Shown piece after piece: positions 27,701 to 63,660 of a stretch of DNA of 64,000 bases; the stretch's first letter is position 1; every line of letters begins with the position of its first letter. Below the pieces are notes generated by a model. That model had not been told where the DNA came from. It did no database searches and saw nothing but the letters and a program-made list of their open reading frames with translations. Source of the DNA: Takakia lepidozioides (taxonomy: Eukaryota > Plantae > Bryophyta); contig CM060732.1 in the NCBI GenBank assembly GCA_030704615.1, positions 30,132,001-30,196,000 on the forward strand, read 5' to 3'. The translations under genes and the position numbers were made by a program.

Positions 27701-27763
27701 CTCAATACCTAGAGCTATGGAGGTGAGAGATGTTCATGGAGGCTCAACTACAGGGAGATGAGC

Positions 27764-33950: not shown

Positions 33951-34004
33951 ATGAGGCCAATCCCAAGGACGATCGCGTACTGAACTCTAGGCTCTGATAC
34001 CAAG

Positions 34005-34731: not shown

Positions 34732-34917
34732 TGAGCCCTCCTCAATGTTCACAAGAGGAAAACCCATCCCCATGTCCCAAATGAGGTTTGACACCTCCAC
34801 TTGGCATGTGAGACCAAATGAAGTCCCAACACACAAAATACAAATATGAATATCCAAAATATCCTAGTTAACTAGAAATAGGTAATTATGGTTAACCATG
34901 ACTAAAACCATGACAGC

Positions 34918-35002
34918 TGTCGAGCACCTAAGCATCGTGTCACAACATACATCGCTGTCCACCATACATTCTAAGCACACAATCCTAGAAAGCTATGCCA
35001 CA
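34918..35002 (-). repeat. Remnant of the 3' LTR of the DNMT/PHD gypsy element; the same ~85 bp also occurs at 27490-27573
   Basis: On the minus strand a PPT-like GGGGGGCGAT (35003-35012) is followed directly by TGTGGCATAGC. A near-identical block is at 27490-27573. Confidence 0.6.
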
Positions 35003-35259
35003 ATCGCCCCCCTAGCTGGTGCTTAGGTCCCTCTAACACTGGATAGCTGACAAGTATCCATCTCAATAAGATCATCGCTTGGTCTTCAATTGCACAAGTC
35101 CCAACACCTGAAGTCGATAGATCAAGAGGCCGGGTGCAAACGTAGCCCCATCGTTAGTCGCCTTCATGCAATCCATGATCTTCAGTTGAGTATCCATGGC
35201 ATTGAAGCCTCACTAGCTAGACCTTGGATCACTTGTCCGCCTCACCATTGTCATGCCCA

Positions 35260-37941
35260 CTACCTCTGTCCAAGGCATCGTGGACACAACCATTCTCCGA
35301 TAGGAACCTCCTCAAGTGGTGGTGTCAAGCATCCCATGTGTCACCCCCTTGAGCATTTATCACACACCAACATGGTGGCGGCACTACCAACATGCCCACA
35401 TAGCATGCAACGCAATCCTGCAGGTACCACTGCAAGGTTGGGATCTATCCTCCCATCCACATGTGGAAGGTGACATGGCGCACAATTGCGCACATGGTCC
35501 TTCCATACCATGCCATCTCGACCCTCCAGAATCAACACTCCTGAAGGCAACACCTCCCGGACCCTTAAAATCACACGTCCTGCTGTGACATCTAAAGTCG
35601 TAGGTGCTGTCTGCTGCAGATACACATAGTCCCCAGGGTGGAAATGCCGAATACCTGGCCGATATCCCCCTCCACGTATAGTGGCGTACCTCAATGTGTC
35701 TCGGTGTTGGGCAATAGCAAGGTTCTCAAAAGCCATAGGCATGACTCTCTTGAACAACTCTGCCCGTTGGGCACATGCTTATGTCCACACATTCGGATCA
35801 TCAAAGTTGAGGACTACTAAAGTCTCCCTACAAATAGATGCAGGCAAATCTGGCTCTCGGCCGAAGAGAAGAAAGTAAGGTGAGAAGGAGGCAAGTGAAG
35901 CTTGTTTGCTGAACCTATAGCCCATAGCTAGCCAAGGCAGTTGAAGGTCCCAATCTCCTAGGTGTCCTTTCTGCAAACCTCTCTTGACTGTCTGAACAAC
36001 TCTCTCCGCCAAGCCATCAGCCTCGGGATGATCCCGAGAAGTAGTGCGGTGATCTATCAAGGCTTGCTCACACAAAGCCTGAAACTCCCCCAAGAACTCT
36101 CTCCCCTGATCCGTGAGTACCTCGGCTGGAGCACCAAATTGGCTAAGCACTCGATCTAATAATGCATACGCAGCCCTCTCACTTGCCTTGTCAGGCAATG
36201 CCACCAGTTCAATCCACTTGGAGAAATGTTCCATCATCACCAGCACATACTTGTTATGGCGAATCGTTAGTGGCAATGGGCCTGCGAAGGCAAGACTCCA
36301 ACGATAGCCCAAACCCACCAATACTGCCCTTGCAGCAAACTATGAGTGCGCCGCACCCCAAAATGTCCCAACTCCTCATGGGCATGGCGTACCAATCGTG
36401 CTCGTTGTGTTGGATGAGGCACAATCCTCACTCGTCCATCCTCCCATACTCGGAGTAGATGAGTCCCCTCCCACCTCTTAGCTCGTTGTAGGATCCGATC
36501 TCTTTCCTTAGCAGTCCCACTGGCTGCTGTCTCTCTAGTACGAAGGTAGGCCAACACTGTCTGCATCTTCATGCACATCCTTAGCACCACTAAGCTCCTC
36601 ACTGATCTCTCCAATATCATCATGCTCGCTCGTGCATGGATTACGACTCAATCCATTTGCATCCCGATTGACAATACCGGCTCGATGCACCACCTGAAAG
36701 TCGTATTCTTGAAGCATAAGTGTCCACCGTGCAAGCTTCCCTGTAAGCTTGTCTGACTCCATCAACCACTTCAATGGTTGGTGATCCGTGACAAGGGTGA
36801 AGATATTGCCATAGAGGTAGCATCTGAAATGCGCCACTGCCCATACCGCAGCTAAACACTCCCCTTCATAAGAACTATACTTCGCCTCGACATCATTGTT
36901 TGAGCGGCTAGCATATGCCACTACGAACTCTCTTCCCTCATCATCCACCTATGTGAGCACTGCTCCAATCCCCAGCATACTCCAATCCGTATATAGCTGG
37001 AAAGGCCGCTCCCGAATAGACCGCATCAGAATAGGTGTAGAAGTCAATCGAGCCTTGAGTTCCTCAAAGGCTTCTTCCTGCTCCTCCTCCCACTGCCACT
37101 CACTCCTGACCCACCTTGGTCAACTTAGTAAGAGCCTTTGCAATGCTGCTAAATCCCTTGACAAACCGTCGATAGTAGTTTGCCAACCCCATGAAGCACG
37201 AACTCTGCTAACATCTATGGGGCGTGGAATGTGTGCAATGGCCTCCACCTTCGTCTTTTGAACACCCAATCCTCCAGGGTATATCATGTGACCCAGATAC
37301 TCAATTTGGTTGTGGAAGAACTTGCACTTCCCAGGGTGCAATTTCAACCCATACGCTCTCAAGCGCTCAAACACCACATGAAGGTGTCTCTCATGCTCCT
37401 CAACCGTAGCACTAAAGACGATGATGTCATCAATGTAACACCGAGAAAAGTCTAGCCCCGCGAGAATCCTATCCATAACCCTCTGAAACTTTGTAGTAGC
37501 ATTCTTCAACCCAAACGGTAGGAAGCGCTATTGGTACAAGCAATCCTTCCCATGTTGGTCAATCCCCCAGAATGTCGTCTTTTGCTTGTCAGCCTCTTTG
37601 ATTGGCAACTGGTGGTAACCAGATCGCAAGTCCAATGTGCTAAACACCTTCGCATGCCCAATGGCATTAAAGATTTCATCTGGAGTTGGCATGGCATATC
37701 TATCAGACTTAGTCTGACGGTTCACAGGACAATAATCCCCACACATCCTTCTTTCTGTCCAATTGCCATAGATATCCTTCTTATCTGGCATCACAGTTGC
37801 CGAGGCATATTCCCCGCCTGACAACTCCACCAATCCAGCTTCGAACAACTTCATAGTCCGTGACTGGATCAATGACCTCTCCATGTTACTATACCGGTAG
37901 GGCCTTCGAAAGATTGGCGTGTCACTTGCCAAATCAATCCG
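35260..37941 (-). pseudogene. Non-chromovirus Ty3/gypsy pol, 3' half: RT, RNase H, integrase and C-terminal PHD finger (degenerate)
   Basis: RRMCGDY, LDLRSGYHQ, YIDD, LYTDWS..VVAYASRSNN..SYEGECLAAVWAV, HEELGHFG, VLTDQGREF, ADGLAERVVQTVK, then CMLC..CDKC..HMGC..WLCPRC. Multiple stops and frameshifts. Confidence 0.92.
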
Positions 37942-37949
37942 TCCACCGT

Positions 37950-40900
37950 AATTGCCTCACCCCATGGAGATCCGAGACCATGATAGATACGTCTTCTTCT
38001 TGGCTGAGCATGCACAACCACCTTCCAATTCCCCCCTCTGTTTTGTCATCGGAAGAAAAACTTGCTCCATGTATGAAGGCTGTGCTGGAACCACCTTCCC
38101 TTGAAGAGAAGAGGCCGGTACCTTGTATACTGAAGTTGGAGTATGCTATCAAACTCTCCAATGTACTCAAGTTTGCTCATAGCAGGTCGTGTATTTCCCT
38201 TGCCCCACACGGAGTCTGCCAATATGTGGCACACAAGCCAGAATCAAAGGTTGTTTTGAGCTTCATGTCAAGAGCACGAATGCGGAAATGACGACCGTGT
38301 GAACCAAACCGCCATGTATGAGGTCGCGAATTGAGAGGGACCCCTTGCAATGTCTTGCCCAAATCTGAACCACCTCTCCTTGAGCAACGGCGTCATAAAC
38401 TGAAGTCCGAAGCCACTATTGGAATGAACTTAGAGGCTGCAATTCCATGGGCAAATTTGTGAAAGAACATTCCGGCGGCCCGCTCCTCGTCGTGGGCGTC
38501 TAGTAACCAGCTTGGATGGTTCCGCCTCCATGAAAGCGTCTCTTCCTCTCGTTGCTGAACAAGATTATTGTATCTTTCCTACCACTCATGTATGGCTGGG
38601 GTGTTCTTCAGTATTGAAGTCATGCGCTGCTCAATCACCAAGGTCGGCAATTTTACCCTCTTCGATTTTTGGGCAAACGATTTGTCATGGTTCGTGCATC
38701 CTCCTCTTCCTTCCACATTTGAGGGGCTTCTCATCAACCCTTGTCATGTACTCCGTGCAATAGAACATAGCTTCTTGCAACGTATACCCTCCGCCATGCT
38801 ACCCTCGGGTGCGCCATTTGTCTTACAAATCCTTTCAAAGTCTTCATATAACGCTCAAGGAAGTACATCCACCGAGAATGAACGGGTCCGGCAATCGAAG
38901 CCTCTTCCACTAAATGCACTATCAAGTGCACTTGGATGTCAAAGAAGGAGGGAGGAAGGTGCATCTCCAACATACACATTACCTCCGCCGCCTCCTTCTT
39001 CATGCTTGGCAAATCTGCTTCTTCCAACTCTTTGGAGCAAATCCACCGGAACAAGCCTCACAATCTATAGATTGTCTCGCGAACCTCGGGAGTCAATGTC
39101 CCACGTACTGCAATGGGCAAGATGTCTTGCAATAGATTGTGGTAGTCATGAGACTTAAACCATGGACCCCGTCTTCTTCGCTGAACTTCATACGGAGGGA
39201 TGACCCATAACCAGTGGTGTTCGGACAGCACTTATGGTGGCTATCACTTTCTTGTATTCCTCCTTTGTCCATTGCCAAGATGCATGCCTATACTTCCACC
39301 GTATAACACCCTTTGGGTCCACACCATTTTGTTCGGCCCATAGATGGCGCATGCGACCCTGCTCCTCAAGCTCCTTTCTAACACCGAGAGAATCTCCTTT
39401 TGCAGCCACTCTCTTCTTTGTCGGCGTGCCATAAAGAACCCGAAAAAGGAACGAGCAGACATTCTTCTCAATATGCATAGGATCTAGAAGATGGCGAATC
39501 TTCAGGTCCTACATATATCCACCCACAAAGACTTACACAATTTTTTTACTTGAAAGTGAAGTGACCTTGCAACGCATACCAAATGTGCAATATCACATGC
39601 ATGCATATGGATATTGACGGTGTTTTTGTGGAATATGTACCGCCCAATATGACAACTCGTAGAAGATTGAAAGTCGTTTCATGCCAGGCACGTCCACTTC
39701 ACAGTCCGTGTCCGCATGGGCCTCCTTCCATCGGTCCTCCAAAACTGCCCGGACGGTGTCATAGGGGGGGAACGTACTTCCTCTTTGTCAAACAAGTGTT
39801 TCTCTCTTCTTCTCCATCGATGGCTCATAGGAAGAAATTTACGATAGTTGGGATACACCATCTTGTGAAGATGGCGGGAGCTATGTGCATCAAGATCATC
39901 GCCACAAGGCAAGCATGCATGATACCCTTTGGTGCTTAGCCCCGAGCAAACAGTTAGTCATGTACTACACATCCCACCACATTAGCAAAAACAAAAAGTT
40001 GTCATGTGCATGGCCATAATGCCATCACCCCACTAAGTGCACAAGACTGTCGCCGCTACTTCAAACAATCCCAATTTTCATCGATATTATCCAGCATTGA
40101 CAAGTGAATGTACGCGGGTTGTTCATGGAGAACATAATATACCTGGATAATCATGCATTGTCCAAAGCAAGATGTCTCTCATCTGAAAATATTGTCCGGC
40201 CATAGGGTCAAGTGAAGCATCCAATGCCGGGACCCCCCTCCATAGCTCTTTAAGTTCATCAACAAGAGGTCGCAAGTACGTGTCCATGTTTGCCACTTGT
40301 TTTTTCCCTACGAGACATTTACATCATTATTTCAATGCTCCACCAATATGCAGATTATACTACAAAATGAATTACACATCTTGCTCCATGATTATGTCAC
40401 TCATCAATCTTGCATCTGAATTGCGTCAAAGATCAAAAATTTAATGTAAAGTCGAAGGCAATAATAAACATGAAATGAGTACACTCACCTGGCACAATGG
40501 TAGCCAACATGATATGGCATTTTTTAATTGAAAGATACGGAGGGATATTGTAATTCACCATGGTCACCGGTCAAGTGGAATGACTACATGACTGGACAGA
40601 GATTGGGTTGACCCCATCCGAGGAGAAGCCGAGGTGGACATGTCGTGGGTCCTCCAAGAGAAAATGCCACATCTCTTCAATATGCCTCCATGCTTGTGAA
40701 TCTTGTGGCCCACACACCTTTCCCGGGGGGCTCTGATGCGAGGCGTGCCATCTCATGAGTCTGGCCAATTCGGGGCTTCGGTATTGTGCCCTCAATCGCG
40801 GGATGATCGGAAAGTAATGCATTTTCTAGGATGAAATACCCCACGCCCCCCACATGTAATCATCCCATTAGCACACATAATACAACAACCTTATGCATTT

Positions 40901-41740
40901 CCCTTTATGCAGCCTCTCCCTCATTTGGGTGTGAATGGTTAAAACCAAACATCGCTCCTTCCACTTCTCACTCACTCCTTCCAAAACCACAATCAGATCT
41001 TGCATGAGTACTACTCTCTAAACCCTAAACTTTGTGGAATACACTTTACATACATTGAGAAGATTAAAGAAAATAATCTCCATGCGAGGGGGAATGGCGC
41101 TTATACCTTGCGTGGTACTTTTTTCCCTTGGACATCATCCCGATATCGGTCTTTCTTGCACTTTGGGCACTTTGTGAGATGCGAATCCTCTCCGTAGTAT
41201 AGGGTTTTATCACATGGACATGCATGAAAAATCTTATAGTCCATCCCCACAGAGTCCAAGACTTCGCGCGCCTCTTTCCGCGACCGTGGCATCCTGGGTT
41301 TCAAGTGTGGAGAAAGGATATAGTCTGCAATAGTTCGCATTATGGCAGACATCCCAACATTACTTATGCAAATCGAATTTGAAGATTGAGCAAAAATAAG
41401 ATTGTTGAAAGTCGACTCACTTTCGCCCCTTCGTACAAGGGAGTTCTCGCCTCCCTCTCCATGTCATTTGAGGGGGCCCTCAGGATCATCGATTGGTCGG
41501 GTTCCCTCTTCATGGGATGCATCAGCGCCCACATGATGCATTAAGAGATCATCCATGGCTTGCACATCCTCCTGGTAATTCCATGCTCATTGTTGTTATC
41601 ACTGTCACTATCACACTGTCATCGTCATCATCGTCCGGTACCGTGGGGGCGGCGTCTCACCCACGGCTCCCGCCTGATGTACTTGGGTTGTTTTCGGATA
41701 AGGTACCAAGAGAAAGCCGGGGACCGAGGGATGGATAAAG
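37950..41740 (-). pseudogene. CACTA Tnp2/TnpD transposase (Transposase_21, DUF4218 and DUF4216-like regions), multi-exon, degenerate
   Basis: ARTPLYEGAK, HACPCDKTLY..CPKC, YFPIIPRL..LMRWH, SSDGVNP, DTYLRPLVDELKELW, WTMHDYP, DPMHIEKNV, PPSFFDIQVHLIVHL..GPVHSRWMYFLERYMKTLKGFVR. Confidence 0.9.
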
Positions 41741-42738
41741 CTGATACGAACAAATGACAATGCATAGGGACATATATTATAATGTGTCCTTGCAACCATA
41801 CACTTCATTATAAGCGAAATGCAAACACAACCTTCAATGTGTGTGTGCATCAATATGTCATTCAATAATCTACTATATGTGCGCGCACGTACGCATGCAA
41901 AGTTTCAAACCCAAACAAAATCATTTGCCCCCCCCAATGATGCATTCACCCTATCAAAATTTTGTTTATTAATGTGAAAGAAATCCTCATGCATTGCACC
42001 CAACAAACGGATGTGGCTCAGGCTTCATTTTTTCCTACATGTGTGCAACACCTGTACAAAGATCCAGCAGGAAAAAAAGAAAAAAAGAAAATGCCTCCCC
42101 AACGACGCACTCACCCTTGCACCATTTTTGAATTAAATGAATTAAAATAAATGTTTGCATTTAGAAAATATATGATTGCGGTTTTAGGGGGGTTTTATTT
42201 TTCTATTTTGTTCTCTGCCTTTGTTTGCCCCACATCCGTGCCCAAAAAATGAGACAAAAAATAAATGGAAAAAAAATAAGTGGTGTTTCTAGGGTCACTT
42301 TTGCAGGAACTCTCTGAAAAGTGCGTAAAGTTGTTTGATAACTCAACTTTGGAATGCCAATGACACGAACAGATCTGTTATGGGTCTGGTCCAAATGACT
42401 TTGTTTACTCCCCAAATTGCATCACATTGCATATGCTATCATTAGGCATATGGCTTAAAAATGGAATAAAAATCATCTCCACTGCGAAACGACAACCCCT
42501 TGTTATGACACGTAGCTGCGTTAACACTAGAATGACCCATTGAATCCCTTGATTCAAGCTTTTCATATCTTGGTCTCCTGTGCATAAGTATGTTTAGATC
42601 ACATATGCAAGTTGCAACCCCCACGGACACGTAAAAAATTTACATCAATCGATTACATCGGATATAAAAAGTTGTTTCCCATCTCTGAGACAATCTCCCT
42701 CTGCCCGTTACGTGATCCCTTCTCAAAGGAACCCTATT

Positions 42739-43243
42739 CTATATACACTCCTTCGCTTTTTTAATCGGAGGTCCCTCATCCCGGGAGAACTCGTATGATG
42801 CAAATAGTTCGCTGCCAGCCTTAATAGTCCCTACATCACACAACAGTGTCTGCATCTCCCTCCAATATACTGTCGTATGACCACAAAAGCTCTCATGCCA
42901 TCGCTTCGCTCGTCCCATACTATTGGTTCTCCTAGGATGATCCAAAAGACTATTGACCAGCCTGCAGCAACATATGCCGAAGATTGTCGGGGTCACCCAC
43001 CCACAAAATTGATCTCATAGGAGACCCCCCCGTCTTGTACATCTTCTCCGTGACACACAAAATGTTAGGTGGGATGTATGGGCTTCGAGGCGTAGGAACT
43101 CCGCGGAGGTGTAGTATGGACCGTAGTAGGGAACCCAATGTCCACCATGCTATTCTCCGAGGAGGAACCACAATATCATTGACCGTGAATAAACCCCGAC
43201 CCATAGCAGGGCTGACTCTGGCTCTCACACCACTACCGCTCAC
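42739..43243 (-). pseudogene. Degenerate SET-domain-like coding remnant inside the CACTA element
   Basis: Across frameshifts the minus strand reads GVRARVSPAMGRGLFTVNDIVVP..VPYYGPYY..GDP..LVNS..TN..GTIKAGSELFASY. This matches the order of SET motifs GxGLF / Y.G / (F)INS..N / I.xG.EL..Y. Confidence 0.55.
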
Positions 43244-43949
43244 CGATCTCGAACATCACATTTCTCTCGGGGGGTGGGAGGGGATTCGAGATGATTCCCC
43301 CACCACACGGGTGTGGTCCTCAGTCCTTTCCATTGGACTTGCCTTCCCATCGGCGGTCCGCCGGAGGAATCCGGCTGATGGCCAAGCCAGCCAGGGGAGG
43401 TCTCTAGGGCGACCTCTAGCCGCACCCCACCTTCGTGTTCGGGGGGCACCATGCACTGGTGGTGGAGGTGGAGGTGTACTTTTGTAATGTCGGAGGTGCA
43501 TCGGGGTACCGGGCTCGTCCATTACCAGAGGTGGACCAGGCAAAGAAACGACGTGGGAGGGGGGAGGCCACAATCAGGGGTACCGCCCACTGGGAAACTT
43601 GGGGGGGGGGGGGGGTGCTCCTCCCGTCCACTCGCCTACGACACCCCCCCTACGATCCTCCTCGACCCTGCGAGGGTCTGCATCTACGTGCAGGGGTGTG
43701 AATTAACCTTCACATCGGGCCATGCTTGGCACAAATTCTGCCAAGTAGACAAGGTGCGAGCGATGCGCCATCCAGTGTGCAATCGAGGAGTGTGCATCAG
43801 TCCTGCTGCAATGTGCGCTTAGTGAACGACGCATCAATACTTATGTCCGTAATTTTGATTCATGTTATGCTTACCAAGTCATACTATACTTATTAGATAA
43901 ACCTAAATGTACCTTAAATGAATGTTAATGAGAGGGGTGTGGAAAAACA

Positions 43950-44165
43950 CTCCCCTTTGCCCGCATCCGCAATCTTTTCTTCTTTGTAATGTTTTCGACA
44001 ACATTGTGACGCCTCCTGGTGGGTGGTGCCGTGCCCAGCGGTATCCGTCCCACACTTAGTGCACCAACACTCAATCCTGTCGGGGGGGGGGTTAAAGGTG
44101 GACGTTGTTTGGACTGGTGGCCCGCGAGGGGGCACCGCGGCGCCCGACTCGATCCTGAAGTGCAC
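43950..44165 (-). CDS. Small Cys/His exon (IECWCTKC...CRKH), similar to transposase-associated zinc-binding N-termini
   Basis: CxCxxC motif followed by a GT donor-like site; lies upstream of the SET-like remnant and Tnp2 on the same strand. Confidence 0.35.
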
Positions 44166-45019
44166 ATCCTCCGATCCCCGGCAATCTGGCCCTCCCTTTT
44201 AGATGTAGCCTCATACCTTTTAACCCCCCCCCCAACCAACCGTCAATCCAAACCCACCATAAAGAAAAGCAAACACCAATCCAACCGTCAACCAAAAAAA
44301 AAAAAAATAAAAACTAGAAACCCAAAAAGCCCCAACCTAAATCCAGAAAGGTGGCCGTCGCCTCCTGCGCACCATGCCACCCTGGCGTCGCATTTACGCG
44401 AGTTTTTTTTTTTTTTTTTGGGGGTCACAACCCCAGCGACGGACAGCGGGACGCAGGGGCGACGTGTTTTTTTTATGGGGCCGGGGGTCGCAAGAAACAA
44501 CGGCCAGCCGTCGCAATCTTCATTTTTACATTTTTAAAAAGGGCGGGCGCAGGCGTGCGACAGCCGGGCATCGCACGTGGGCGCCGCGCCCTTTTTTTTT
44601 CCCTAAGTGCTTCAAGCATCTCTTTCCCCTCCCGTTTTTGTTTGTTCTTTGGGAGAGAGGTAGTTCAGAGAGTGGGGTTTAGGGTGGAGGAGAAACGCAC
44701 CTACTGTTGAGCCCGAGGTGGTCGCAAGGCCCCAAGAAGTTTGCCCCAACGCTGCTCCAACGCCCAAGGTAAGCACCGCCTCCTCCCTCACTTTCTGTCT
44801 TTCTTTCTTGCCCTAAGCACGGGCTGATGTTTCTCTCCCATGTGTGGTAGGAACGCCGCGCAGAGGCGCGATCTAACGAGCTGAAGAGAGAGAGAGCCGT
44901 GGTGAGCGGGGAGAGACGCCCTGCAGTGGCGGGGACCCGCGTCGCTGGCAGCCGCGACAACACCGCAGCAGCTCGTCGCGCCAGCTTGCTTCAAGCACCA
45001 GCAGCAGCAGAGGTACGTC

Positions 45020-45965
45020 AGGGAAATTGCACTCTCCCTTTCCTCTCTGCTTCTGTTTACTGTTCAAATGTAGTCTTCCTGCCCTAACTTTAAATTTAGG
45101 TCTGGTGCCAAGAGTGGGATAGACCCTTGAGCGCATCCATGATGTCCTCCCCCATGTCACAGACTGGAAACAGGTTTCAGGGAAGTTTTCTTCCTAACTT
45201 CATTTTCATCGGACAATTTTCTGGTAACAGACATGGCTTTGGACACTACACTCTCTAAGTCAGGTTTATCCAGCAAGGTCAAGACTTGCGGGTCCAGATT
45301 CAGATTCTTGAGAATCTCTTTTACTCTCTTCTCCCAGGGCTCACCCTGTTTGACAGGGCGGTCCTGTTTCCAAGATATAGAGTCGATTAACTTAGGATAT
45401 CTGGTGTTGGACATATATTGCAGCTGAACCCACCATCTGACCTTGAATTTAGGGTGTCGGGAGCTTAAAAGAGAGCAGCACAGAAGAGAGGGAGAGAGAG
45501 GGGAGAAAGGGAGTGAGAGGGAGACATCAGGGGGCAACAAAGAAAAGAAAAGAAGGTGGGGGGGGGATGACTGAGCAGCTGCTGCTGCTCAGTCACCCCC
45601 CCCCCCCCCCACATTCTCTGTTTTTCTTTGTTGCCCCTCTCTTGGGGAAACAAAAGGGACAGATCCTACCTCTGTCAGGGGCTGACGTTGGTAGTAAGAC
45701 TCACCTTCACATATAGAATTAATCCGGGTTTTCCAGATATCCTCTACAAATCCTTTCACACAAGCATCAATTTGTTGTGTGTGAGTTGCCCAAAAACTAG
45801 GCCTCAGAAGGGGCCGGGCTTTTAGCTCAGCCTCGACTTTTTCAAAGTTAGTAAACAGAGGTACATGCACAATTCCCTTGATAGATTTGAAGAGAGCATC
45901 TCTTTGGTGAGAGAACCCCGGACAGTGTATCAGAAAATGAATAATGTCTTCAGGTTGCCCACAGA
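45020..45965 (-). mobile_element. Rearranged non-LTR retrotransposon (LINE) 3' fragments, an inverted copy of 51420-52119
   Basis: Minus-strand peptides DKPDLESVVSKAM..KFKVRAG..RGKGECN and CGQPEDIIHFLIHCPGF match the plus-strand ORF 51448-52119, with the two segments in swapped order. Confidence 0.75.
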
Positions 45966-45985
45966 CATGGTTGGACATGGTTCTG

Positions 45986-47055
45986 CCTCTTTCCTTCCTT
46001 GATTTTTGAAGAACAACTGTAATGCTTTCTATGATGGGCTAGTTCGGCCCAGCCAGTGGAAAACCTCTGTTATGTTGTGACAGGCGGGTTTATGATGGCT
46101 TGTGTGAGAGACACACATCTGTTTTCCAGGCCCTAGTTTGCTTTGCTTACCTTATGGTAGTTGGAAACAAATTGAGGCTGCAAGGAACTGTTTGCTGCAG
46201 CTACTCGGGTACCTCTGTTGGTAAAAGGCCCCTGTTATGTTCCAACCCAGATGGCTTTGTTAGCTAGATACTTAGGCCAGGGTATGGTGAAGTTTATGCC
46301 TGTGGCTATTCGGCTGACACTGAAATATGGCAGTAATATAAATGGTAACTAGTTTTTGAGGCAGCCAGGGTGGTCAAGTGGAAATACCCCCTGGACATGG
46401 TGTAATGACATGGTCAAATGTGGAATGATGTGAAGGGTGTATTGACAGTATCATATACTGTCACAGGATGTGTATATAGTCCTTTATATTTACCTTGATG
46501 TGTCATGAGCTTTGATTTTCAGCTGTAGCAAGAAATAAAGGTATAGGGATGTTCTGGAAAACTTACCAGACATATCCACATCCCTTGTGGGGGCAAACTG
46601 TACTGCACACCAGTCTAAACAAATACTGGCAAGGTAAGGTATTTAAATCTGTGATATCCAAGTTCTTTTTTAAGAAAACCCTCCATGACACCCATGGGGT
46701 TTTAGTAAGTATGCTTGGATTACAGCTTGCAGACAGTAAATCTGTATGACTATGTGACCTGCACCACATCAAGGCCAAAATATGGCCAAGTACCCGCCAT
46801 CCCACCCAGACCTCTGTAAGTGTATCATGATCTTGACTGGTGGTCAATCAATATCAATGGCATACTCTCTGGATTATGAATAATACTGACATGAACACAT
46901 TACTGTGCATGGATGTAATTCTGGATTTTCTAAGCTCGATGATTGATGGATGGCACCACTGTTAAGTGGCTGATATGTCTATTTATTCTTTCATGACATC
47001 GACCCTAGGGGTCCTGTCTTTGTCTTGACATGACAAAGAGTATCTTCCCTCTCTT
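45986..47055 (+). repeat. ~1.07-kb direct repeat, copy 1
   Basis: Highly similar to 50320-51400; no TG...CA ends. Confidence 0.92.
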
Positions 47056-47079
47056 ACTGTCCAGTATGCTTAGTGGTTT

Positions 47080-48780
47080 TTGCATACACTATCCCTTGGT
47101 CACCAGGCTAAATTTCCAGTTTATGTGCAGAGTTCCACCAAACAGACTCCGGAATGGATTGCTGAGCTGCAGACCATGGGATATCAGCCACCGCTGCCCC
47201 CTCCAATCCCTGCTATTCAGGCTGTGTTGGCACAAACAAAGCCAACGGACTTCCATGCTAAAGTGCAAGCATTGGACTCAGCAGCTATTGATTCAGTGAT
47301 GACAATCCAATCCTGTTGCTTGAGACTTTGGCCCTAGAGGACTGGGTTAAGCTGTCCCTATCTGCAAATAAAAATGGCAAGTACATGATCAGGCTGATTG
47401 ACTATCATGACGTATGCCTACTATCCTTGAAGAGGATACCAAAGAACTCTCGGAATGTGGTCTTAAAGGAGAAAAGATTGAGGCTGCACTAAGTCTGGCT
47501 AACCCTGAAGACGAACAGGCCCCTTCTACCCGGAAATCGCCCTCCAATGCTGAGCAGGATTTTACCCCCTCCGTCACCAATCACCCGCTTCTAAGTCACA
47601 TGTGTCTTCCCGAACATGAAATTGATGCGGTGAAGGATTTCTGTGAGCATGTGGAAATGTCACAGGTGGAACAAGACAGGGCAGCAGGCGCTACCCCGGG
47701 GAATCAGCAATTTGTCCCTTGGACACCCCCTTGCTCTGTTGAGCTCGACGTGGCCAACAACGAGCACATGATGTGGCACCCGCAAGCCAACATCAACCTC
47801 TTAGCACCCATCTCCATCGAGATGTGGATGAAGTGGGGTAACATCACTGATGCTGAACACCTACATTGTTATCAGGATGCTATAGATGGTTTCCAGAGAT
47901 TCAAAAAGGAGCCCATCGCTGTTGCATGACCCTTAAAAACATTTTATTATAAGTTATGTGACAAATGGGACAATATCGCTCTTAGGACCAAAAATGATCC
48001 CCCTATTGGATCAGTCCGTTCCCGGAATCACAAAAGCCAACTCTGGAACTGGCACATGCCATACCTAAGATGTAATTGTGGACCTGGTGCTGCTCCGTCT
48101 GGATGTGTTGGAAGTGTGGCTTGGTTCGATCATTTGGTCTGGTACATGATTAACCATCTTGGGGCTTTATTTCCCGATGCAACATACCCCACAGCACAAA
48201 GCAAGTACTATAGCTTCATTGTATGGCTGATGAGGGCTGCCAAATCTGCAATACTGGCTCAGATAACATTCCAAATGATCCAGGAGCTCCTTTTGGAAGC
48301 AGCAGAATCTTTTGCCGATAACCCCAAGGCAAAATTGCTTGATAAGCTACTGGACTCCAAAGGGCTAGATTCATTGAGAGATTGATCAAACCTAAATCTT
48401 TCTCCGACAGCCTCCCCAAACCTGCGTTTAATAGCTATAAACGGCAACGCATTGAAGGGAACACTTTCCAGCAAACAGGGAGACCCAACAGGGGCAGGGG
48501 TGCTAATTTCAGAGGACGTAGGGGCTACCAAAGAGGTGGCAGGTTCGGGCAGAAACAACAATCTTTCTCCAACTCCGAGAATGCTAAGTCCGTAACTAGA
48601 ACATCCAATGGAGGCTTTGGATCCAATTCCTGCTCCACAATCGACATTGGGAGCCATGGGTCGAACCGATCCAGACAGATGGCAGGAGAGTTCTCCCCAA
48701 TCCACAAGAGGAACTTTGATGCCTGGGAATGATCATTGACAACCTAAAAATGGTATGTCCTTTCCCTTATGTATGCAGAT
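47080..48780 (+). pseudogene. Degenerate gag-like ORF, possibly from a DIRS/tyrosine-recombinase retroelement
   Basis: Long interrupted reading frame ending in an RG-rich tail (RGRGANFRGRRGYQRGGRF). It is followed by FDAWE..IIDNLKNGMSFP, which recalls the start of DIRS RT ORFs. No RT or recombinase core is visible. Confidence 0.35.
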
Positions 48781-50319
48781 TTGTTGACTTTTGATGGAAC
48801 AAAAAGAAAGAAAACCATGCATAAAGCAGCTGGTTTCTTACACATGTAATACCTTGAATAAACTAGTTTTATTTCGGGGTCTATGCTCAATACATACCCC
48901 AATCACACCATTAAGGTTGATATACTTGTTTCGGATACCCAGTTTGTCTAAAGGTAGCCTGATAATCCTTTTCAGGACATCTTCCGAAGGATTGGCATAT
49001 GAGCAGGGAGAGTTTGCCCTTTTAGAGAGGAGTTTGGTATGCACTCCCTTACGGGGTGAGTGCATACCACACTCACTCCGTAAGGGCCTGCCATACCAGG
49101 GGTTGGATGGTGGGGACACTGGGCTTATGGAATTGTTGTCCCGACTTCCATCCTTGAGGAAATTGAAAAAAAATTGCAAAATTGGGTTGCAGGGAATTTT
49201 GGATGTTTTTTATCCAAAATAATTTTTTAATTATATTTTTTTAGTGAAATATTTCTTCACTATAAAACTTGTGAGTTGCAAAACTCCCGTCAGTTTCTAC
49301 TTTTTCAATCCAACCTGGATGAAAAAAAGACTTCATCTGACAGGACCTAAATACAGGGCAAATGTTTTTTTTTTAAAAAACCCCCCATGTTTTTCATCTA
49401 ACCTAGATGAAATACGGACTACATCCGTTGAGTACAAGACAGGATGAAAGCACGATGTCTTTCATCTTCCACGAATGAGAAATGGACTACGTCCGTCGGA
49501 CGGACAGACTGGCGGATGTTTTTCATCCTGAGAAGGATGAATGACGGGCCAGATAGGGGAAAACCCTGCGCAACCCTAATGTCTTTCTTTTTGCGCTGCG
49601 AGAGCGCGCGCGATGGCGGCTTGTGAGGAGCGATGGTGCTCGTGCTGCAAATACCTTGAGCTGCCAATCCTTGAGTATTTATGGCTCCCGTGAGCGACGC
49701 CTGGGCGGGCTCTTTAAGGCGATGGCGGTGGCTTAGTGATGAGGGAAGATTCCCTGTCTCAGTTGTCTGTTTTTTTGGCTGCACAAGGGAACCGCGGCAG
49801 TGATGGCGGAGGCACCACCTGCATGCCTAGGACGTTTCCCTAGGAGCCCTCCTCTGGATCTTTGATGAATGGCGGCACAAGGAAGTCTCTCTCCCTCCCT
49901 TTATAAACCCTACCTTTTGGGACCAAGCTCTTTTTTTCTTGTGCTTGGCAAGACCTTGCTTTGGTTAAGGTAGCAGTGCTGTTGTGTTGGCGGAGTCCTC
50001 CCTGCACGGTTAGGCTTTTATTTTTTCGGTTGGTTTTGCTTCCTTGCTTGCTTTGGCATTCTCTGTGCTTAGATTGAAGTGTATTTGACCTCGATAGCAA
50101 GTGTGGAAGCCTGCTACTCACCTCGTGCATCCTCACTAACTCACAATGCGTTGTGGTTGTTTTTGGGACGGGCACAGGTGAGGGCTTCCACTTAATATTC
50201 TGATGTCTAGGTGCTGCTGGATGCCAAGTGGGATTGCAGAGTAGGGGAAATAATCGCTTGCCAGGGACTCATCCTAAAATGTTGAAAAACTAAACTACTC
50301 TATGGTTTTCTTGATCCTA

Positions 50320-51400
50320 CCTCTTTCCTTCATTGATTTTTGAAGAACAAGTGTAATACTTTCTACGATGGGCTAGTTCGGCCCAGCCAGTGGAAAACCT
50401 CTGTTATGTTGTGACAGTCGGGTTTATGATGGCTTGTGTGAGAGACACATATCTGTTTTCCAGGCCCTAGTTTGCTTTGCTTACCTTATGGTAGTTGGAA
50501 ACAAATTGAGAGGCTGCAAGGAACTGTTTGCTGCAGCTACTCGGGTACCTTTGTTGGTAAAAGGCCCCTGTTATGTTCCAACCCAGATGGCTTTGTTAGC
50601 TAGATGCTTAGGCCAGGGTATGGTGAAGTTTCTACCTGTGGCTATTCGGCTGACACTGAAATATGGCAGTAATATAAATGGTAACTAGTTTTTGAGGCAG
50701 CCAGGGTGGTCAAGTGGAAATACCCCCTGGACATGGTGTAATGACATGGTCAAATGTGGAATGATGTGAAGGGTGTACTGACAGTATCATATACTGTCAC
50801 AGGATGTTTATGCAGTCCTTTATATTTACCTTGCTGTGTCATGAGCTTTGATTTTCAGCTGTAGCAAGAAATAAAGGTATAGGGGTGTTCTGGAAAACTT
50901 ACCAGACATATCTACATCCCCTGTGGGGGCAAGTTGTACTGCACACCAGTCTAAAACAAAATACTGGCAAGGCGAGGTATTTAAACCTGTGTTATCCAAG
51001 TGTTCCTTTCTTTTCTAGGAAAACCCTCCATGACACCCATGGGGTTTTAGTAAGTATGCTTGGATTACAGCTTGCAGACAGTAAATATGTATGACTATGT
51101 GACCTGCACCACATCAAGGCCAAAATATGGCCGAGTACCCGCCATCCCACCCAGACCTCTGTAAGTGTATCATGATCTTGACTGGTGGTCAATCAGCATC
51201 AGTGGCATACTCTCTGGATTATGAATAATATTGACATGAACACATTACTGTGCATGGATGCAATTCTGGATTTTCTAAGCTTGATGATTGATGGATGGTG
51301 CCACTGTTAAGTGGCTGATATGTCTATTTATTCTTTCATGACATCGACCCTAGGGGTCCTGTCTTTGTCTTGACATGACAAAAAGTATCTTCCCTCTCTT
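50320..51400 (+). repeat. ~1.08-kb direct repeat, copy 2
   Basis: Highly similar to 45986-47055. Confidence 0.92.
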
Positions 51401-51419
51401 TTTTTAACTTTTTCTGCAG

Positions 51420-52119
51420 AGGGGTCAACTCTGAGGTTAAGAAAACCATGCTTTGTCGCATTATTAGACCTGCCTTGGAGTACGGATCTGCAATATGGGT
51501 TGATAAATCTGACTTAGAGGCTGTAGTGTCCAAAGCCATGTCTGTTGTCATGAGATTGTCTGATGAAAATGAAGTTAGACAGAAAACTTCCCTGAACTTG
51601 TTTCCAGTCAGCGACATGGGGGAGGACATCTTGGATGACCTCAAGGGTCTACCCACTCTTCGCACTAGACTGAAATTTAAACTCAGGGCAGGAAGCCTAC
51701 CTTTGAAGAAGCAGAGAGGAAAGGGAGAGTGCAATTGCCCGTTGTGTGGGCAATCTGAAGACAGTACTCATTTTCTGATACAGTGTCCGGGGTTCTCTCA
51801 CCAAAGAGACGCTCTCTTCAAATCTATCAAGGGAATTGTGCCTGTACCTCTGTTTACCAACTTTGAAAGTCTCAAGGCTGAGCCAAAAGTCCAGGCCCTC
51901 CTGAGGCCTAGTTATTGGGCAAATCACACACAGCAGTTTGATGCTTGTGTGAAGGGATTTCTAGAGGATATCTGGAAAACCCAGATTAATTCTATATATG
52001 AAGGTAAGTCTTACTACCAACGTCAGCCCCTGACAGAGGCAGGTTCTGAACCTTTTTTTTCCGCTCAAACTGGGCGCGGGGTCAATGGCCACAAGGCTAC
52101 GGCAAACAACGTCTTATGA
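51420..52119 (+). mobile_element. LINE ORF2 C-terminal fragment (RT thumb plus CCHC zinc finger), internally deleted
   Basis: IIRPALEYGSAIW, KFKLRAGSLPL, CPLCGQSEDSTHFLIQCP. Confidence 0.78.
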
Positions 52120-52329
52120 GTACAATCTTTTAACTTTTTCTGCACCCTCTCTCCCTTGTGGTTTGTTTACTTTTGTGAACAGCAGGGAGAGAGAGAGAGA
52201 GAGAGGGAGAGGGAGAGGGAGAGAGGTAGAGAGGGACAGAGAGAGGGAGAGATCAGGAAACCAAAAAAAAAAAAAAATGGGGGGGGGGGGGAGTGACTCA
52301 ACCCCCGACATGCTTGGTTTTTCAGCAAA

Positions 52330-53932
52330 GAAGGGCCTGGACTATGGGGCGCCGCCGCCGGCTATGCTCCACATCTGGAATCTACTTCCAGTGGCGCTCC
52401 GAGAGGGGATAGAGCGGGCACATCCGGAAACGGGGACTCCTCCCACATCGGGTGACACCAGGGGCGAGTCGGACAAGCTTGCAAAGGTACAACTGTCGCA
52501 CCTTGTTCCATGATTTATCCTTTCCTTTGCATGCATGATTTTCTTTGTTGTTTGTTTCTTTTTTTGAATTTGGAGGGGTTATTTGTCTTCAAGAGGCAGT
52601 AACATGGCTGGCCTCATTGGTGCAGTCCAGTGGGGTTGCCAATGAGGGAGAGCACGTGGTGTTCATGAAGGACCCGAACACCAAAGGTAAGAAGAAGAGG
52701 CCTCGATCTCCCGAGATCCTTTTTACCATCAATGAAGGGGCTGTCGAGGAGAGAGAGAGAAGGGAGAGGGAGAAGGAGAGAGAGGAAGTAGCGGGGAAGG
52801 GGAAGGAGATGGTCGTGGAGAAGGAGAAAGAAAAGAAGAAGAAGAAAAAGAAGTCCCATGGAGAGGAAGAGGTGAGTGTGCATGCGGAGGAGGGCAGTGG
52901 GGTAACAAAGGAGCAAACAAAGGAGGCTACAAAAAAAGGAGAGGGTGGGATGGCCTTGGCGATACAGGACGTGGAGTTGGCAAAGATCGTGGTGCCACCG
53001 GTGGAGGTGAATCGCCATGGTGACCCCTGCGGTGCGATCTGGGAGGCTATGAAGAAACTAGCCTTCGAACTCGCATTGAGGTGGTTCCCTTTGCACATCG
53101 AGTGGGCTGATCAGCACTTTGGCGTGAAGCGGGCGTATGCCCGGGAGTTAGACTGCCGATTTCCAGGCAATTGGAGTGACACAAGGGTGATGGAGATGGT
53201 GGGGCGAAACTTGAAGGACAGGAGGTACCGTGCCAGACAGATCATTCGGCGGGCAATGGAAAAGGGGGCCATACCCAAACCACCTTATAGAATTATACAG
53301 GTTGGCAAATCCTGAATCATGTCACCTTCCATTTGTCGCATGTGCATTAATGAGGTGGATTCGATGCAACGTATGTGTATGATTCACTAATTGTTGGGGG
53401 GGTGCATAGGTATCGTGGGATGCACTCATTGCGGGAGAGACTGATGCCGCAAACAAGGCCAAATTTGATCGGGCACGCGAAGCAACAACAGTCCGCCTTG
53501 ACAAGCACGAATCCACACACAAGTGGGGCGCCGGCGGATCCAAGGGTTTTATCTTGCGATTTGTAAGTCGTACTTCCCTGTGGATTTTGTTATGTCTTTT
53601 TTCTGGCTCCATCATCGCAAAGAACTGACTTTAATTTGTGGCATGTGTAACAACGCGCGTTTGAGAGGAAGCCATCTCCAGTAGAGTACAACTACGCCAA
53701 GGAGCATGGTTGGCAATCCCTCATGAAGAACATGGGCAACACAGAGGGGATGAGTGCACTACATGGCACTAGTATGGATGAGGTCGAGGGTCATGCCCAG
53801 GGATTGGATGAGAGCTCTGTGGGACTTAGGGGAACGCCGCCTCATTTACGTGCTCTGGCAAAGGGCGCGGAGTCATCAGGCTCATCGGACAGCTCTGAGT
53901 CCTCCACTGAGGATGAGGATGAGGATGACTAG
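52330..53932 (+). pseudogene. CACTA ORF2 / TnpA-like (Ptta/En/Spm, Transposase_24-like) gene
   Basis: VEVNRHGDPCG..W..Q..LKDRRYRAR..PP, then an exon VSWDALI..KAKFDRAREA..THKWGAGG. Lies directly inside the CACTA terminus. Confidence 0.6.
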
Positions 53933-54881
53933 TCCTAGTCCATGTAGGGTCAGTCTACTGAACCCTTGTGAGCTTTTCAGTTCATTTCTTGTAAATATAT
54001 TTCCATCTTTCCATCTTCCATCTTATTCATGTGTCACACCGTCCTCACCCTCGATTCATGCTTGCTCAATTGTGTACCTGCTAACTCAGAGAAATGGAAC
54101 TGTAAGTTCTCCCATCCCCAAATACAAAACCAGGAAAAAAACAAAAAACCACCCCCAATTCACCCCCAAAATGAACCCCCAACCTCCCCCCACCAGGCTG
54201 CCCTCGCGACTGCAGCACGTCGCCAATGGCGACGTGTTTTTTGGGCGGGGATCGCAAGCAGCGATGGTCGGGCGTCGCAAACCCCATTTACGGACGGCAA
54301 CGCCCGACACCCCCTGCGACGTGTTTTTTAGTCCGGGGGTCGCAAGCCGCGACGCCCTGGCGTCGCGGAGACCGCCACCCTGCCTGCGCCACGTTTGTTT
54401 TTTGATTAAATTTAAAACAAAAGCAACGCCGGAGCGTCGCAACAACCCACGCCCGGGCATGGCGAAGACCGACTCCTGCTGTTTTGTGCCACGCCCAATA
54501 GTCGCTTGGCGTACCACCCGGCTGACTCCCAGGCAGGTTAGAAAAAGAAAAAAATGGATACGACGCCGCGCCGGCGCCCCCACCAACGCCGTCGGCTGGA
54601 GGGCCGCAACGGCGAGACGTCGCTCGAAGAGGCTCCTGCAACGGCGTGGATGGCCTAAAAAACCGACGTCCGACAGTCGCGGGAGTTGGGGCGGGGGCTC
54701 GCGACCCCCATACGTCGCATTTTTGCGACGTCATTTTGGCGACGCCCTTGCGACTGCAGGGCGACGGCCGGGCGTCGCAAATTCTGCGCCTTCCGCGTGC
54801 CCGAAAAGGGCGTTTTCCTGACGCTGCTGCGTGGCCTTGGCATGGCGCGGGCGTCACAAAGGCCCCCATTTTCCTGTAGTG

Positions 54882-55825
54882 CATGCACAAGCCAATTATC
54901 CATGTCAAGCAATTTAGATCCATTGTCTGACCCAACACCTGGCGTCGTGATGCCTCTGACAGAGCTGGCACAGATGTAGTGCCCGTGACAAACCCCATTG
55001 CCAGCTCGCGCTCATCCGCATTGGGCTCCACCAATTGTTGTAGCACACTGTCCCAAATCAACCCAAGACCATTGTCTCGAAAAGCATGAGACGAGGGAAA
55101 GCTCATGAGCGTAGACAAGGTTGTACGTGGCTGCCCCACTCGATTAACCATTGCTAGAGATGGACGGTCATCATGTCGCACCCTCTGTGGTTGCCTCCCT
55201 TGGTCCAAAATGCCCTCAACCGTGAGATTGGGTGGCCGTTGAATGGAATCATATGCTCCTTTGAGCAGCTCTGGTGGTGCAAGATTGGTCCACCACAATC
55301 GAGGTCGATGAGCGCATGATCCCACCGCTGCTGCATCGCCGATCCAATCCAAGACCGCACCTGATGCACACTGGCCATAACCCTGGCCCGAGAGTCCCCC
55401 ATAAGAGGAACAATCTCCAAGATATAGGCTAGAGGTTGCACTTGCCTCGTCTGCAAGTCACGCAACACTCTCAACATCTCCCAAAACAAATGCGATCGTG
55501 CATCATGCAAGCCATTCCCATGACCTACGGGAGAGTATCCTTGGCAAGGCCATCCAGCTATCACCAAGTCAATGACACCATGCCGGTCCAAGTCATCCGC
55601 CCCCAACATGGTAATGTCTGATGGCAAGGCCTTTTGGTACCCTTGAATTGCTGAGAGAGGCAGCAACTCAGGGTACTGGTGTGTGAGCAAGACAACGTGG
55701 CACATAGAAATTCGCCGAGCTATCTTATCCTTGTCCACATACAAGTACTTTTGTACTTTAATCCCAGCTTGCAACACTCCTGCAAGCCCAGTGCTCATGC
55801 CTCCAAACAGGTCTAGCAAACAAAT
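54882..55825 (-). pseudogene. DNMT3-type C5 cytosine DNA methyltransferase domain encoded within a Ty3/gypsy polyprotein
   Basis: Motif I LDLFGG, motif IV DLVIAGWPCQG, motif VI YILE(I)V, motif VIII DAAAVGSCAHRPRLWWTNL, motif IX ERELAMGF and motif X RRQVLGQTM, in canonical order, with no introns and one frameshift near 55340. Confidence 0.92.
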
Positions 55826-56199
55826 CCCTGAGTTAGGTGGTTGTCAGGTAATGGGCACTGTGTCCAAAGGAGCTAACTGAGGAGGTCTAGGTGATGTCAC
55901 TGAACTCCCCTCACTCACCTCCTCCTGCCATGCTTGGTGCACACACTCGCCTGCTATTCGATGCAAATTCCCAACTGTACCCCACAGTGGAATATGAACA
56001 GACACATGAGGAAGCAAATCAGCCTTGTATGTCAATTGTTTGTCCTCATCAGGTGGTGGCCTATCATCTGCATGGCTATTGCCCTCCAAGAGCTCACCAC
56101 CCCAAGCCACCACCCCTGAGAATGCAGCCAATGTGGGCATCATGTTCCTATGATCCACCGCTACATTCCCAATAAACCGCACTGGGAGCAGTGCACGTC

Positions 56200-56997
56200 G
56201 TTGTCCAATATCCCATACCAGAATTGGACTGTTTGAGCTTGTGTAACCCCTTGGGTTACGTTTATCAAGCGCCTCATGTGCGTGTAAGCCTCCCTTAAAC
56301 TCTCGGCAGGCTTTCGTTGGAACTCTTGCAAACTCCGCAATTTCTCCGTCCTTATCCCCTGGTAAATTCTCCTTAATGCCTCGAAGAACTCCACAACTGG
56401 GTTAAAGGCTGGCACGGGTGTTGGTGCTACAGTAGGAGCTTGGGTGGACTTCCCAACTCCTGTTCCACTTGACTTCCCACTGCTGCTTGCAGAAGCTGCC
56501 GGTGTAGCTGCCGGTGTCACCACTGCCCTTATGCCTCTAGTGATGGAGACATAGTCAGGTGACCAATACATCCGCCATTCCTCAATCTCCACCTCATGTC
56601 CCCGCCTAAACTCATGGTAGTCATCCATGGGCGGCCCCTCAAGGTGCTGAAACAGCCCCTTCCACGCCATAAAAGGCGTAAACAGTTGTGGATTGCGCAT
56701 CTGCTGCAAATCACACCAACTATCAAACTCTTATATGAAGTCATCAAGCTCGATGGTGCCCACAGCTCCAGAGTACCTACATGGCTCCTTGGTATCTCCA
56801 TACATCTCCTCCATCGTGTCCCACAACAATGGCACGGAAATGACTTGCACCCTCGGCGAGAATCCTCCTGACTCCGAGTCTGAACCTTCCTCAGAAGACA
56901 CTAAAGGTGAAGGTGGCCTAAACCGCACACCTCGTCTTGTATACCCACTAGTATCGCTGGTGCTCATACCGGCACTCTCCTCAGCAATTGGTGGCAC
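56200..56997 (-). pseudogene. Ty3/gypsy Gag (capsid) of the DNMT-bearing element
   Basis: YSGAVGTIELDDFI*EFDSWC, LFQHLEGPPMDDY, LRSLQEFQRKPAESLREAYTHMRRL (major-homology-region-like Q...ES...Y...L). Same strand as, and directly upstream of, the DNMT domain. Confidence 0.8.
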
Positions 56998-63573: not shown

Positions 63574-63660
63574 CTCGGGGGACCGGTACTGCTGTTGGAG
63601 CACAACTGATGGTGCGAGTTCTCTATTGATTGGAGCTGTCACAACCAATGTCAACAATCA

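Follow-up and report, generated by a model that had tools for sequence, protein, structure and literature searches.

The window analysed here, 64,000 nucleotides (nt) of Takakia lepidozioides contig CM060732.1 (assembly GCA_030704615.1, positions 30,132,001 to 30,196,000), carries the remains of a Ty3/gypsy retrotransposon with a DNMT3-type C5 cytosine methyltransferase (MTase) domain. These remains almost certainly represent a high-copy family, Gypsy-DNMT3, which encodes Gag, a zinc knuckle, a protease and a DNMT3 domain, followed by reverse transcriptase (RT), RNase H, integrase and a PHD finger, and which is bounded by split repeats on the plan A...polypurine tract-B-A-B. The copy in the window is dead, broken by stops, frameshifts and deletions, as an earlier reading of this DNA from its sequence alone (the sequence-only reading) had claimed: there is a frameshift near 55344, motif VI of the MTase reads EIV, and stops occur in Gag, RT, integrase and PHD finger. 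The proposal in that reading of an embryophyte family of DNMT-bearing gypsy elements is upheld by members in Marchantia, Calypogeia, Sphagnum and this host.

Linkage of DNMT to RT and integrase

The sequence-only reading had staked its proposal in advance on the genomic linkage of the DNMT domain to this RT and integrase, and the linkage was found. At the DNA level, the relatives are metagenome loci, 80 in number and chosen as the best among 211 matches; some of the 80 are the same insertion assembled twice. Their DNMT-RT linker is nearly equal to that of a Sphagnum fallax protein, and we refer to them as peat-moss-type loci. The C-terminal half of the DNMT occurs in 77 loci, and 57 have at least 900 nt of downstream sequence. 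RT follows in 48 of these 57 and is missing from the other 9; it lies 422–427 nt from the DNMT in 42 loci, in frame in 33. A search with the N-terminal half returned 29 longer proteins, the named ones from Marchantia polymorpha, Calypogeia fissa, Sphagnum troendelagicum and S. fallax. Both halves were matched in order by six of the 29, linkage in Marchantia, Sphagnum and Calypogeia being read from gene models, which may splice over lesions. When a profile was run against 1.84 billion representatives, 410 clusters scored E ≤ 1e-30. Among the top 150, RT, RNase H or integrase was matched in 90, with RT/RNase H before DNMT in 65, DNMT before RT in 6 and DNMT then integrase without RT in 19; the remaining 60 had DNMT alone.

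In the window itself, 17 kb separate the DNMT from the RT and the linker has been lost, an arrangement that a processed host DNMT3 pseudogene, fallen by chance between retrotransposon fragments, could also give. Against this, the linkage recurs with constant spacing in dozens of loci and in several species, and most of the top 150 among the 410 clusters have retrotransposon domains; we regard such a pseudogene as extremely improbable. Within the host, 15,726 and 25,317 contigs of run X1 matched the two stretches, counts that include short CACTA and chromovirus flanks and are not a copy number.

The methyltransferase domain

The MTase domain of the window (55825–54882, minus strand, as are all family parts described below) is intronless and matches PF00145 (E 1.4e-10), with its motifs in canonical order and the PCQ of motif IV intact. 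It is of DNMT3 type and non-permuted, unlike DRM. When an uninterrupted domain from a relative was compared with solved structures in the PDB, human DNMT3A was the best match (E 1.2e-11), followed by DNMT3C and DNMT3B; HhaI, DNMT2 and DRM-type structures were weaker, at 5e-4 or beyond (1e-3 to 0.08 for the DRM type). An AlphaFold model was poor, with a predicted local distance difference test score (pLDDT) of 48.8 and a badly folded C-terminal half, and its fold search, which also ranks DNMT3A/B first, lends weak support. The Pfam match, the motif order and the DNMT3A match agree with the sequence-only description of a DNMT3-like, intronless, non-circularly-permuted MTase with an intact catalytic cysteine.

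Across the DNMT alignment, the catalytic cysteine is kept in 154 of 158 domains and the motif VI glutamate in all 158, and the motif VIII arginine is nearly invariant. The residue before the motif IV catalytic cysteine is glutamate in 73 and proline in 71 of the 158 retro-DNMT domains. Decay in the window copy is evident from an isoleucine in motif VI (EIV), where 75 of 78 relatives carry asparagine, from the frameshift near 55344 and from a stop just upstream of the domain.

Gag, protease and a conserved stop downstream of DNMT

In relatives, Gag, zinc knuckle and protease precede the DNMT in that order. What remains in the window is an N-terminal part of Gag (56201–56967), with an ATG at 56967 and a stop at 56731–56733, and a post-protease spacer (55844–56200) with a stop at 55844–55846. 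The Gag remnant matches Pfam Retrotrans_gag weakly (E 0.068), yet is 54–62% identical to most Marchantia Gag matches. The distance from this Gag piece to the DNMT is about 2,060 nt in relatives versus 356 in the window, and some 540 codons, comprising the rest of Gag, the zinc knuckles and the aspartic protease, have been lost at 56200/56201. Gag and MTase do share the minus strand, as the sequence-only reading had it, but they do not run naturally into one another, since the zinc knuckles and protease have been deleted between them.

The linker between DNMT and RT contains an in-frame stop at codon 83 in all 33 peat-moss-type linkers of 426 nt (23 TAG, 10 TAA). A motif scan found 49 such stop sites, 47 of them followed by CAA CCC ATG; the commonest decay stops elsewhere in the family are found in about 35% of copies at most. 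The models of the first open reading frame (ORF1) in Marchantia and Calypogeia end 90–94 residues past the last DNMT motif, the figure in the loci being 94, and several database proteins start shortly before the RT. Because the conserved stop splits Gag-protease-DNMT from RT-RNase H-integrase-PHD, the DNMT of these land plants appears to close the Gag-protease ORF. Type I readthrough is signalled by UAG followed by CAR YYA (PMC11166343), and a literature search combining CARYYA with retrotransposon gave no match. The sequence-only reading had anticipated copies with DNMT and RT in one ORF between long terminal repeats (LTRs). The peat-moss-type relatives do not support this: they are in frame but have the stop in 33 of 33 linkers, and their ends are split repeats.

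RT, integrase and PHD finger

RT and RNase H (36590–37941) carry stops and frameshifts, and the integrase (35410–36570), with its H2C2 finger, DDE core and C-terminal domain, carries deletions and stops. Pfam matches on the window proteins were DNA_methylase, RVT_1, RT_RNaseH, Integrase_H2C2 and rve, those from RT to integrase core falling at 37941–35782. The PHD finger that forms the integrase C-terminus (35275–35409) has one internal stop and matches PF00628 at about 35409–35275 with an E value of 6.7e-12 when X is substituted at that stop. All four targets of the profile check outlined in the sequence-only reading (DNA_methylase, RT, integrase and PHD) were thus detected by Pfam, and the Pfam matches together with a polypurine tract at 35013–35007, conserved in relatives, place RT-RNase H-integrase-PHD on the same strand as Gag-DNMT, as that reading had stated.

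The integrase tail leads into a PHD finger in 24 of 25 loci, and integrase-PHD fusions also occur in Klebsormidium nitens, Haematococcus and Scenedesmus. The integrase C-terminus of the family is a PHD finger, not the chromodomain of chromoviruses. Its best structural relatives are the CHD4, PHF12, KMT2D, KDM5A/B, PHF21A and AIRE-type fingers. Most of these fingers read unmethylated H3K4. The parallel that had been drawn between this element and the ADD-MTase design of animal DNMT3 found no support: the PHD finger ends the integrase about 1,000 residues from the DNMT, sits behind the in-frame stop in peat-moss-type copies and is already present on Klebsormidium and chlorophyte integrases. Because the PHD finger belongs to the integrase and the DNMT to the Gag-protease ORF, the parallel is loose at best.

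Element ends

Relatives follow the plan A (about 340 nt, starting TGTCATG), leader, coding region, polypurine tract, B (113 nt, TG...CA), two bases, A, B. The complete B-A-B terminus is present in 7 loci; in about 14 loci B is the sole terminal repeat, possibly through B-B recombination or assembly collapse. At a single insertion site (L014, L070, L071), one assembly has a B-only end (L014) and another has B-A-B (L071). The A copies within each relative are 87–92% alike. Seven independent insertions have both ends, and of these four show an exact 4-bp target duplication, two show one with a mismatch and one is unclear. A tRNA (TGG) primer site directly after the 5′ A was absent from all six loci inspected. 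The B-A joint folds weakly (-6.5 to -10.9 kcal/mol, without a shuffle control).

These ends separate the family from both standard plans. Canonical Ty3/gypsy elements have identical LTRs and a primer site after the 5′ LTR; here the repeats are split and no primer site directly follows the 5′ A in the loci inspected. DIRS and Ngaro elements have a tyrosine recombinase; here there is an rve integrase with 4-bp duplications, and no recombinase is found among the Pfam matches of the relatives. An identity with Troyka was also considered, on account of its split repeats, and rejected, as Troyka has CG...CG ends, 3-bp duplications and animal hosts (PMC12440569), versus TG...CA and 4 bp in this family.

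The 3′ terminus in the window has the same plan. The first copy of B (34918–35002, TG...CA, 85 nt) is followed by GC and by the first part of A (34732–34915), which, like that of relatives, starts with TGTCATG and is set two bases off from B. Repeat A is interrupted by a nested chromovirus-type Ty3 element outside the DNMT family (27764–34731), with 728-nt LTRs that are 98% alike and a 5-bp target duplication. The second part of A (27575–27763) and the second copy of B (27490–27574), identical to the first at 82 of 85 positions, complete the terminus. Position 34918, previously taken for an LTR end, is indeed a repeat end, though not that of an LTR: it closes the first B of a B-A-B terminus running to 27490, which is the true 3′ end of the RT-integrase-PHD half.

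Descent and selection

The DNMT tree (FastTree, midpoint root) comprised 158 domains covering at least 260 profile positions and was built without host DNMT3. It separates, with support 0.997, a DNMT-first group from an RT-first group. The former holds the window together with Marchantia, Calypogeia, the peat-moss-type loci, Closterium and K. nitens GAQ93235.1; Scenedesmus belongs to the latter. The K. nitens protein is collinear with a Marchantia protein from protease through DNMT, with 29% identity over 569 columns (E 1e-54). An RT tree of 89 sequences also held the land-plant group together. We assign the family, as judged from these alignments and trees, to the KnitGypsy-Dnmt3 lineage, here inside land plants.

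The RT-first sister clade has the order RT-RNase H-DNMT-integrase-PHD, often in long open polyproteins, among them 'pol' of Scenedesmus sp. PABB004, and some of its polyproteins have a G-patch domain between DNMT and integrase (P0209, P0266). No chlorophyte gypsy-DNMT3 element is described in the portion of de Mendoza et al. 2018 examined (PMC5890265), and PMC6338049 names green algae only in a general list.

Comparison of the window with the loci gave a proportion of nonsynonymous differences (pN) of 0.245 for the DNMT, with the synonymous counterpart (pS) saturated at 0.74; pN was 0.29 for Gag, 0.18 for RT and 0.15 for integrase. Together with the near-invariant catalytic residues, the contrast between pN and saturated pS supports conservation of the DNMT under purifying selection. 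The sequence-only reading had raised against itself the counter-scenario of a captured pseudogene under no such selection and had suggested a dN/dS comparison; with synonymous sites saturated, no dN/dS value is given for the window against the loci.

One insertion or two in the window

Upstream of Gag, repeated DNA begins at 59274–59355, which has a hairpin motif of about 40 nt in common with the 3′ A repeat and is otherwise diverged; host contig depth falls to single-copy beyond 59356. The probable 5′ untranslated region of the Gag-DNMT half (56968–59273) is repeated in the host and contains short tandem arrays, and contig joints lead from 57772–57917 into the Gag or leader of other copies. 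Groups of host contigs depart from the window at 54882 (22 contigs), 56200/56201 and 55344, so that the CACTA junction, the Gag deletion and the frameshift are places where other host copies have a different continuation. The loose contig ends at these three points look by eye like the missing parts of the family.

Between the two halves lies a truncated CACTA element with further nested repeats (37942–54881), with one end at 54881 and transposase remnants at 41.5–37.95 kb; CACTA transposase-like sequence (DUF4218 at 39057–38737) adjoins the RT side. The sequence-only reading had described a 17-kb CACTA insertion at this place. The CACTA sequence and one of its ends are there, but the insertion is not a clean one: no partner for this CACTA end was found, and the 426-nt DNMT-RT linker is missing. 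The accompanying claim that the two halves are one element stands at the level of the family, through linkage in relatives, and is not supported for a single insertion here, neither a matching 5′ A nor a target duplication having been found.

We lean towards two insertions, of different subfamilies of the same family, joined by one deletion starting inside the CACTA element. The missing cognate 5′ A and target duplication at the upstream repeat boundary fit this history, as does the abundance of the family in the host; in addition, 27 host contigs leave the window just past the polypurine tract into other sequence, which makes a second terminal type likely. Points on the other side are that the halves adjoin within 426 nt on the same strand of the family map, that CpG depletion is alike in the family pieces (0.52, 0.52 and 0.54, versus 0.88 in the nested chromovirus) and that each half is sister to the Marchantia/Calypogeia/peat-moss group in its own tree. 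A single insertion we hold to be somewhat less likely than not.

Proposed mechanism and its alternatives

Taking the layout of the family as a whole, we think it probable that the DNMT is packaged with Gag and methylates the element's own new cDNA, and that the PHD finger steers the integrase to H3K4-unmethylated chromatin. Gag-protease-DNMT would be translated in bulk as ORF1 and assemble the particle, inside which the protease would free the DNMT. ORF2 (RT-RNase H-integrase-PHD) would be made at a lower level, either through occasional readthrough at UAG-CAA or by initiation at the AUG three codons downstream. The DNMT would then be the first protein to meet new double-stranded cDNA and could methylate it (in CG, perhaps also CHH, contexts), such that the cDNA would insert as host-like, already quiet DNA. 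The PHD finger would direct the integrase to chromatin without H3K4 methylation, away from promoters. The B-GC-A joint could represent right end, two bases and left end placed head to tail, allowing one RNA to template both ends without a tRNA primer site. For the particular step in which active copies would methylate their own cDNA, we put the chances at even. Symbiodinium retro-DNMT3s methylate CG de novo in yeast (PMC5890265).

Several observations count against this account or its premises. The DNMT domain of K. nitens gave no methylation in yeast, although neither did human DNMT3B, and the authors called the result inconclusive (PMC5890265). An uninterrupted copy was sought among the 80 loci and none was found. 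At the DNMT-RT junction, 14 of the 49 stops are TAA instead of TAG, the CAA-CCC context fits five of the six bases of CAR-YYA and misses the last, several algal polyproteins, one from K. nitens included, read from DNMT into RT without a stop, and, with the linker deleted from the window, the stop is documented for relatives. In the RT tree, the DNMT-first set forms no supported clade (0.11) and one K. nitens RT falls among the RT-first elements. The dN/dS of the DNMT among loci is 0.58, versus 0.33–0.37 for RT, RNase H and integrase, values inflated by decay and repeated insertions. At the 5′ side of the window, the A repeat resembles the 3′ A over only the hairpin motif of about 40 nt, with the upstream repeat boundary at 59311–59355, and the four bases flanking the 3′ end of the window copy were not found at that boundary, leaving it without a target duplication.

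Alternatively, the DNMT might act at or after integration, on host chromatin or on older copies and not on free cDNA, as self-limiting silencing that spares the host. Expression at Gag level would yield free enzyme for such a role, the DNMT3 orthologues of Physcomitrium perform de novo CG and CHH methylation in heterochromatin (PMC6453930), and a host-benefit model was raised by de Mendoza et al. (PMC5890265). We judge it unlikely, given that, whichever the domain order, the domain lies within a polyprotein that the protease processes, as would suit a task bound to the particle, and that the DNMT has no attached targeting domain. Were the domain to act on RNA or an RNA-DNA hybrid, or to serve the particle by binding without catalysis, this would accommodate the inactivity of the K. 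nitens domain on DNA in yeast (PMC5890265), the variable motif IV with glutamate or proline before the cysteine, and the poorly folded C-terminal half of the model. Yet the catalytic cysteine, motif VI glutamate and motif VIII arginine are near-invariant across very deep divergence, and the nearest structures are the DNA-acting DNMT3A/B, with DNMT2 far weaker, which makes this the more unlikely of the two. Packaging of the DNMT and methylation of cDNA, the account we prefer, can be extended into a broader and rather unlikely proposition: that integrase retrotransposons with DIRS-like ends form an ancient lineage of green plants which has retained a functional DNMT3 and PHD finger from chlorophyte algae through to land plants, that the DNMT was relocated within the polyprotein, and that in land plants a leaky stop downstream of it would give many enzymes per particle and pre-methylated cDNA, with a second source of de novo methylation in high-copy hosts.

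Neighbouring features of the window

The window also contains an intron-split YSL/OPT transporter gene (11120–16036, plus strand) and an LRR receptor kinase (19752–24325, plus strand) with several introns in its LRR part. A piece of the YSL protein is 59–69% identical to its top 120 matches, whose named sources are seed plants, with no bryophyte or fern among them; its C-terminal piece is mostly 66–69% identical to seed-plant YSL6. The kinase looks TDR/PXY-like by eye and scores with several LRR receptors, TDR among them. The presence of these two genes indicates a land-plant host.

Within the CACTA interval (45021–52119), a 1.08-kb direct repeat (45983–47055 and 50317–51400, 95%) surrounds ORFs without identification (47411–48385) and is flanked by two inverted LINE-like remnants; an ORF at 51379–52119 resembles a non-LTR RT tail by eye and has no Pfam match. 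The nested chromovirus is young by the likeness of its LTRs and encodes Gag, protease, RT, RNase H, integrase, SH3 and chromodomain on the minus strand. A 50-nt tandem array with inverted symmetry and long palindromic repeats occur at 60474–61001 and 63042–64000 and are possibly transposon subterminal regions.

Comparison with known systems

Among what we found in print, such elements are described from algae alone, the single gypsy case that we found characterised being that of one alga. No description of an embryophyte Gypsy-DNMT3 family was found in the literature searched, with subscription journals and Repbase outside it; the passages seen of PMC10952607, PMC6453930, PMC6317226, PMC9477723 and two bioRxiv papers do not mention the family, and the word 'methyltransferase' is absent from PMC6317226. 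In the portion seen of de Mendoza et al. 2018, K. nitens is the sole plant treated (PMC5890265), and in the corresponding portions of two later papers from that group 'streptophytes' appear with land plants unnamed. An opinion paper holds methylase-encoding transposons to be absent from land plants such as tracheophytes (PMC6338049), contrary to the occurrence of the family in Marchantia, Calypogeia, Sphagnum and this host. Unnamed 'DNA methyltransferase' gene models in these plants are retroelement debris. With Marchantia as a tractable model for which methylome data exist, it becomes possible to test in a land plant why retroelements carry DNMTs. Two points of replication are testable as well: the stop by which the DNMT is placed with Gag, and insertion by an integrase where the repeats are split, an end-to-end joint is embedded and a tRNA primer site is lacking.

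The SymbioDIRS-Dnmt3 and SymbioLINE-Dnmt elements of dinoflagellates are likewise retroelements bearing a C5 methyltransferase, and SymbioDIRS has the A-coding-B-A-B plan (PMC5890265). They use a tyrosine recombinase or are LINEs, whereas a DDE integrase and target duplications mark the present family. EpiLTRs and DAM-LTRs of Cymbomonas and Euglena (bioRxiv 10.64898/2026.05.21.726589) are LTR-type elements that combine a methyltransferase with a histone reader; theirs are a DNMT sister to DNMT4, an adenine methylase and a chromodomain, in place of the DNMT3 type and PHD finger seen here. PHD-bearing gypsy elements of Chlamydomonas, Gypsy-7a_cRei (bioRxiv 10.1101/2022.06.16.496473), and chromoviruses also have a histone reader in Gag-Pol, with a proposed insertion bias. 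Gypsy-7a, which inserts between genes 2.6 times more than chance (bioRxiv 10.1101/2022.06.16.496473), has no DNMT listed in the portion seen, and chromoviruses have a chromodomain and ordinary LTRs, as in the element nested here. Animal DNMT3A/B (PWWP-ADD-MTase) and plant DNMT3/DRM are alike to the family in the type of catalytic domain and in motif order, but the MTase of the family has no adjacent PWWP, ADD or other reader, is unpermuted unlike DRM, and is intronless.

The closest known system is KnitGypsy-Dnmt3 of K. nitens, an intronless, non-permuted DNMT3 in a Ty3/gypsy element with DIRS-like repeats and purifying selection, for which the A-coding-B-A-B repeat plan is stated (PMC5890265). 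In the searched text, review file and table of that paper, with the main supplement outside the search, 'PHD', 4-bp duplications and an end-to-end joint are absent. The K. nitens protein GAQ93235.1 shares the zinc knuckle-protease-DNMT order and belongs to the DNMT clade of the family (0.997). KnitGypsy-Dnmt3 is an algal element whose DNMT is placed by PMC5890265 in the Pol ORF with RT; the family described here occupies land plants, reaches high copy in its host and has, in its peat-moss-type members, a stop between DNMT and RT.

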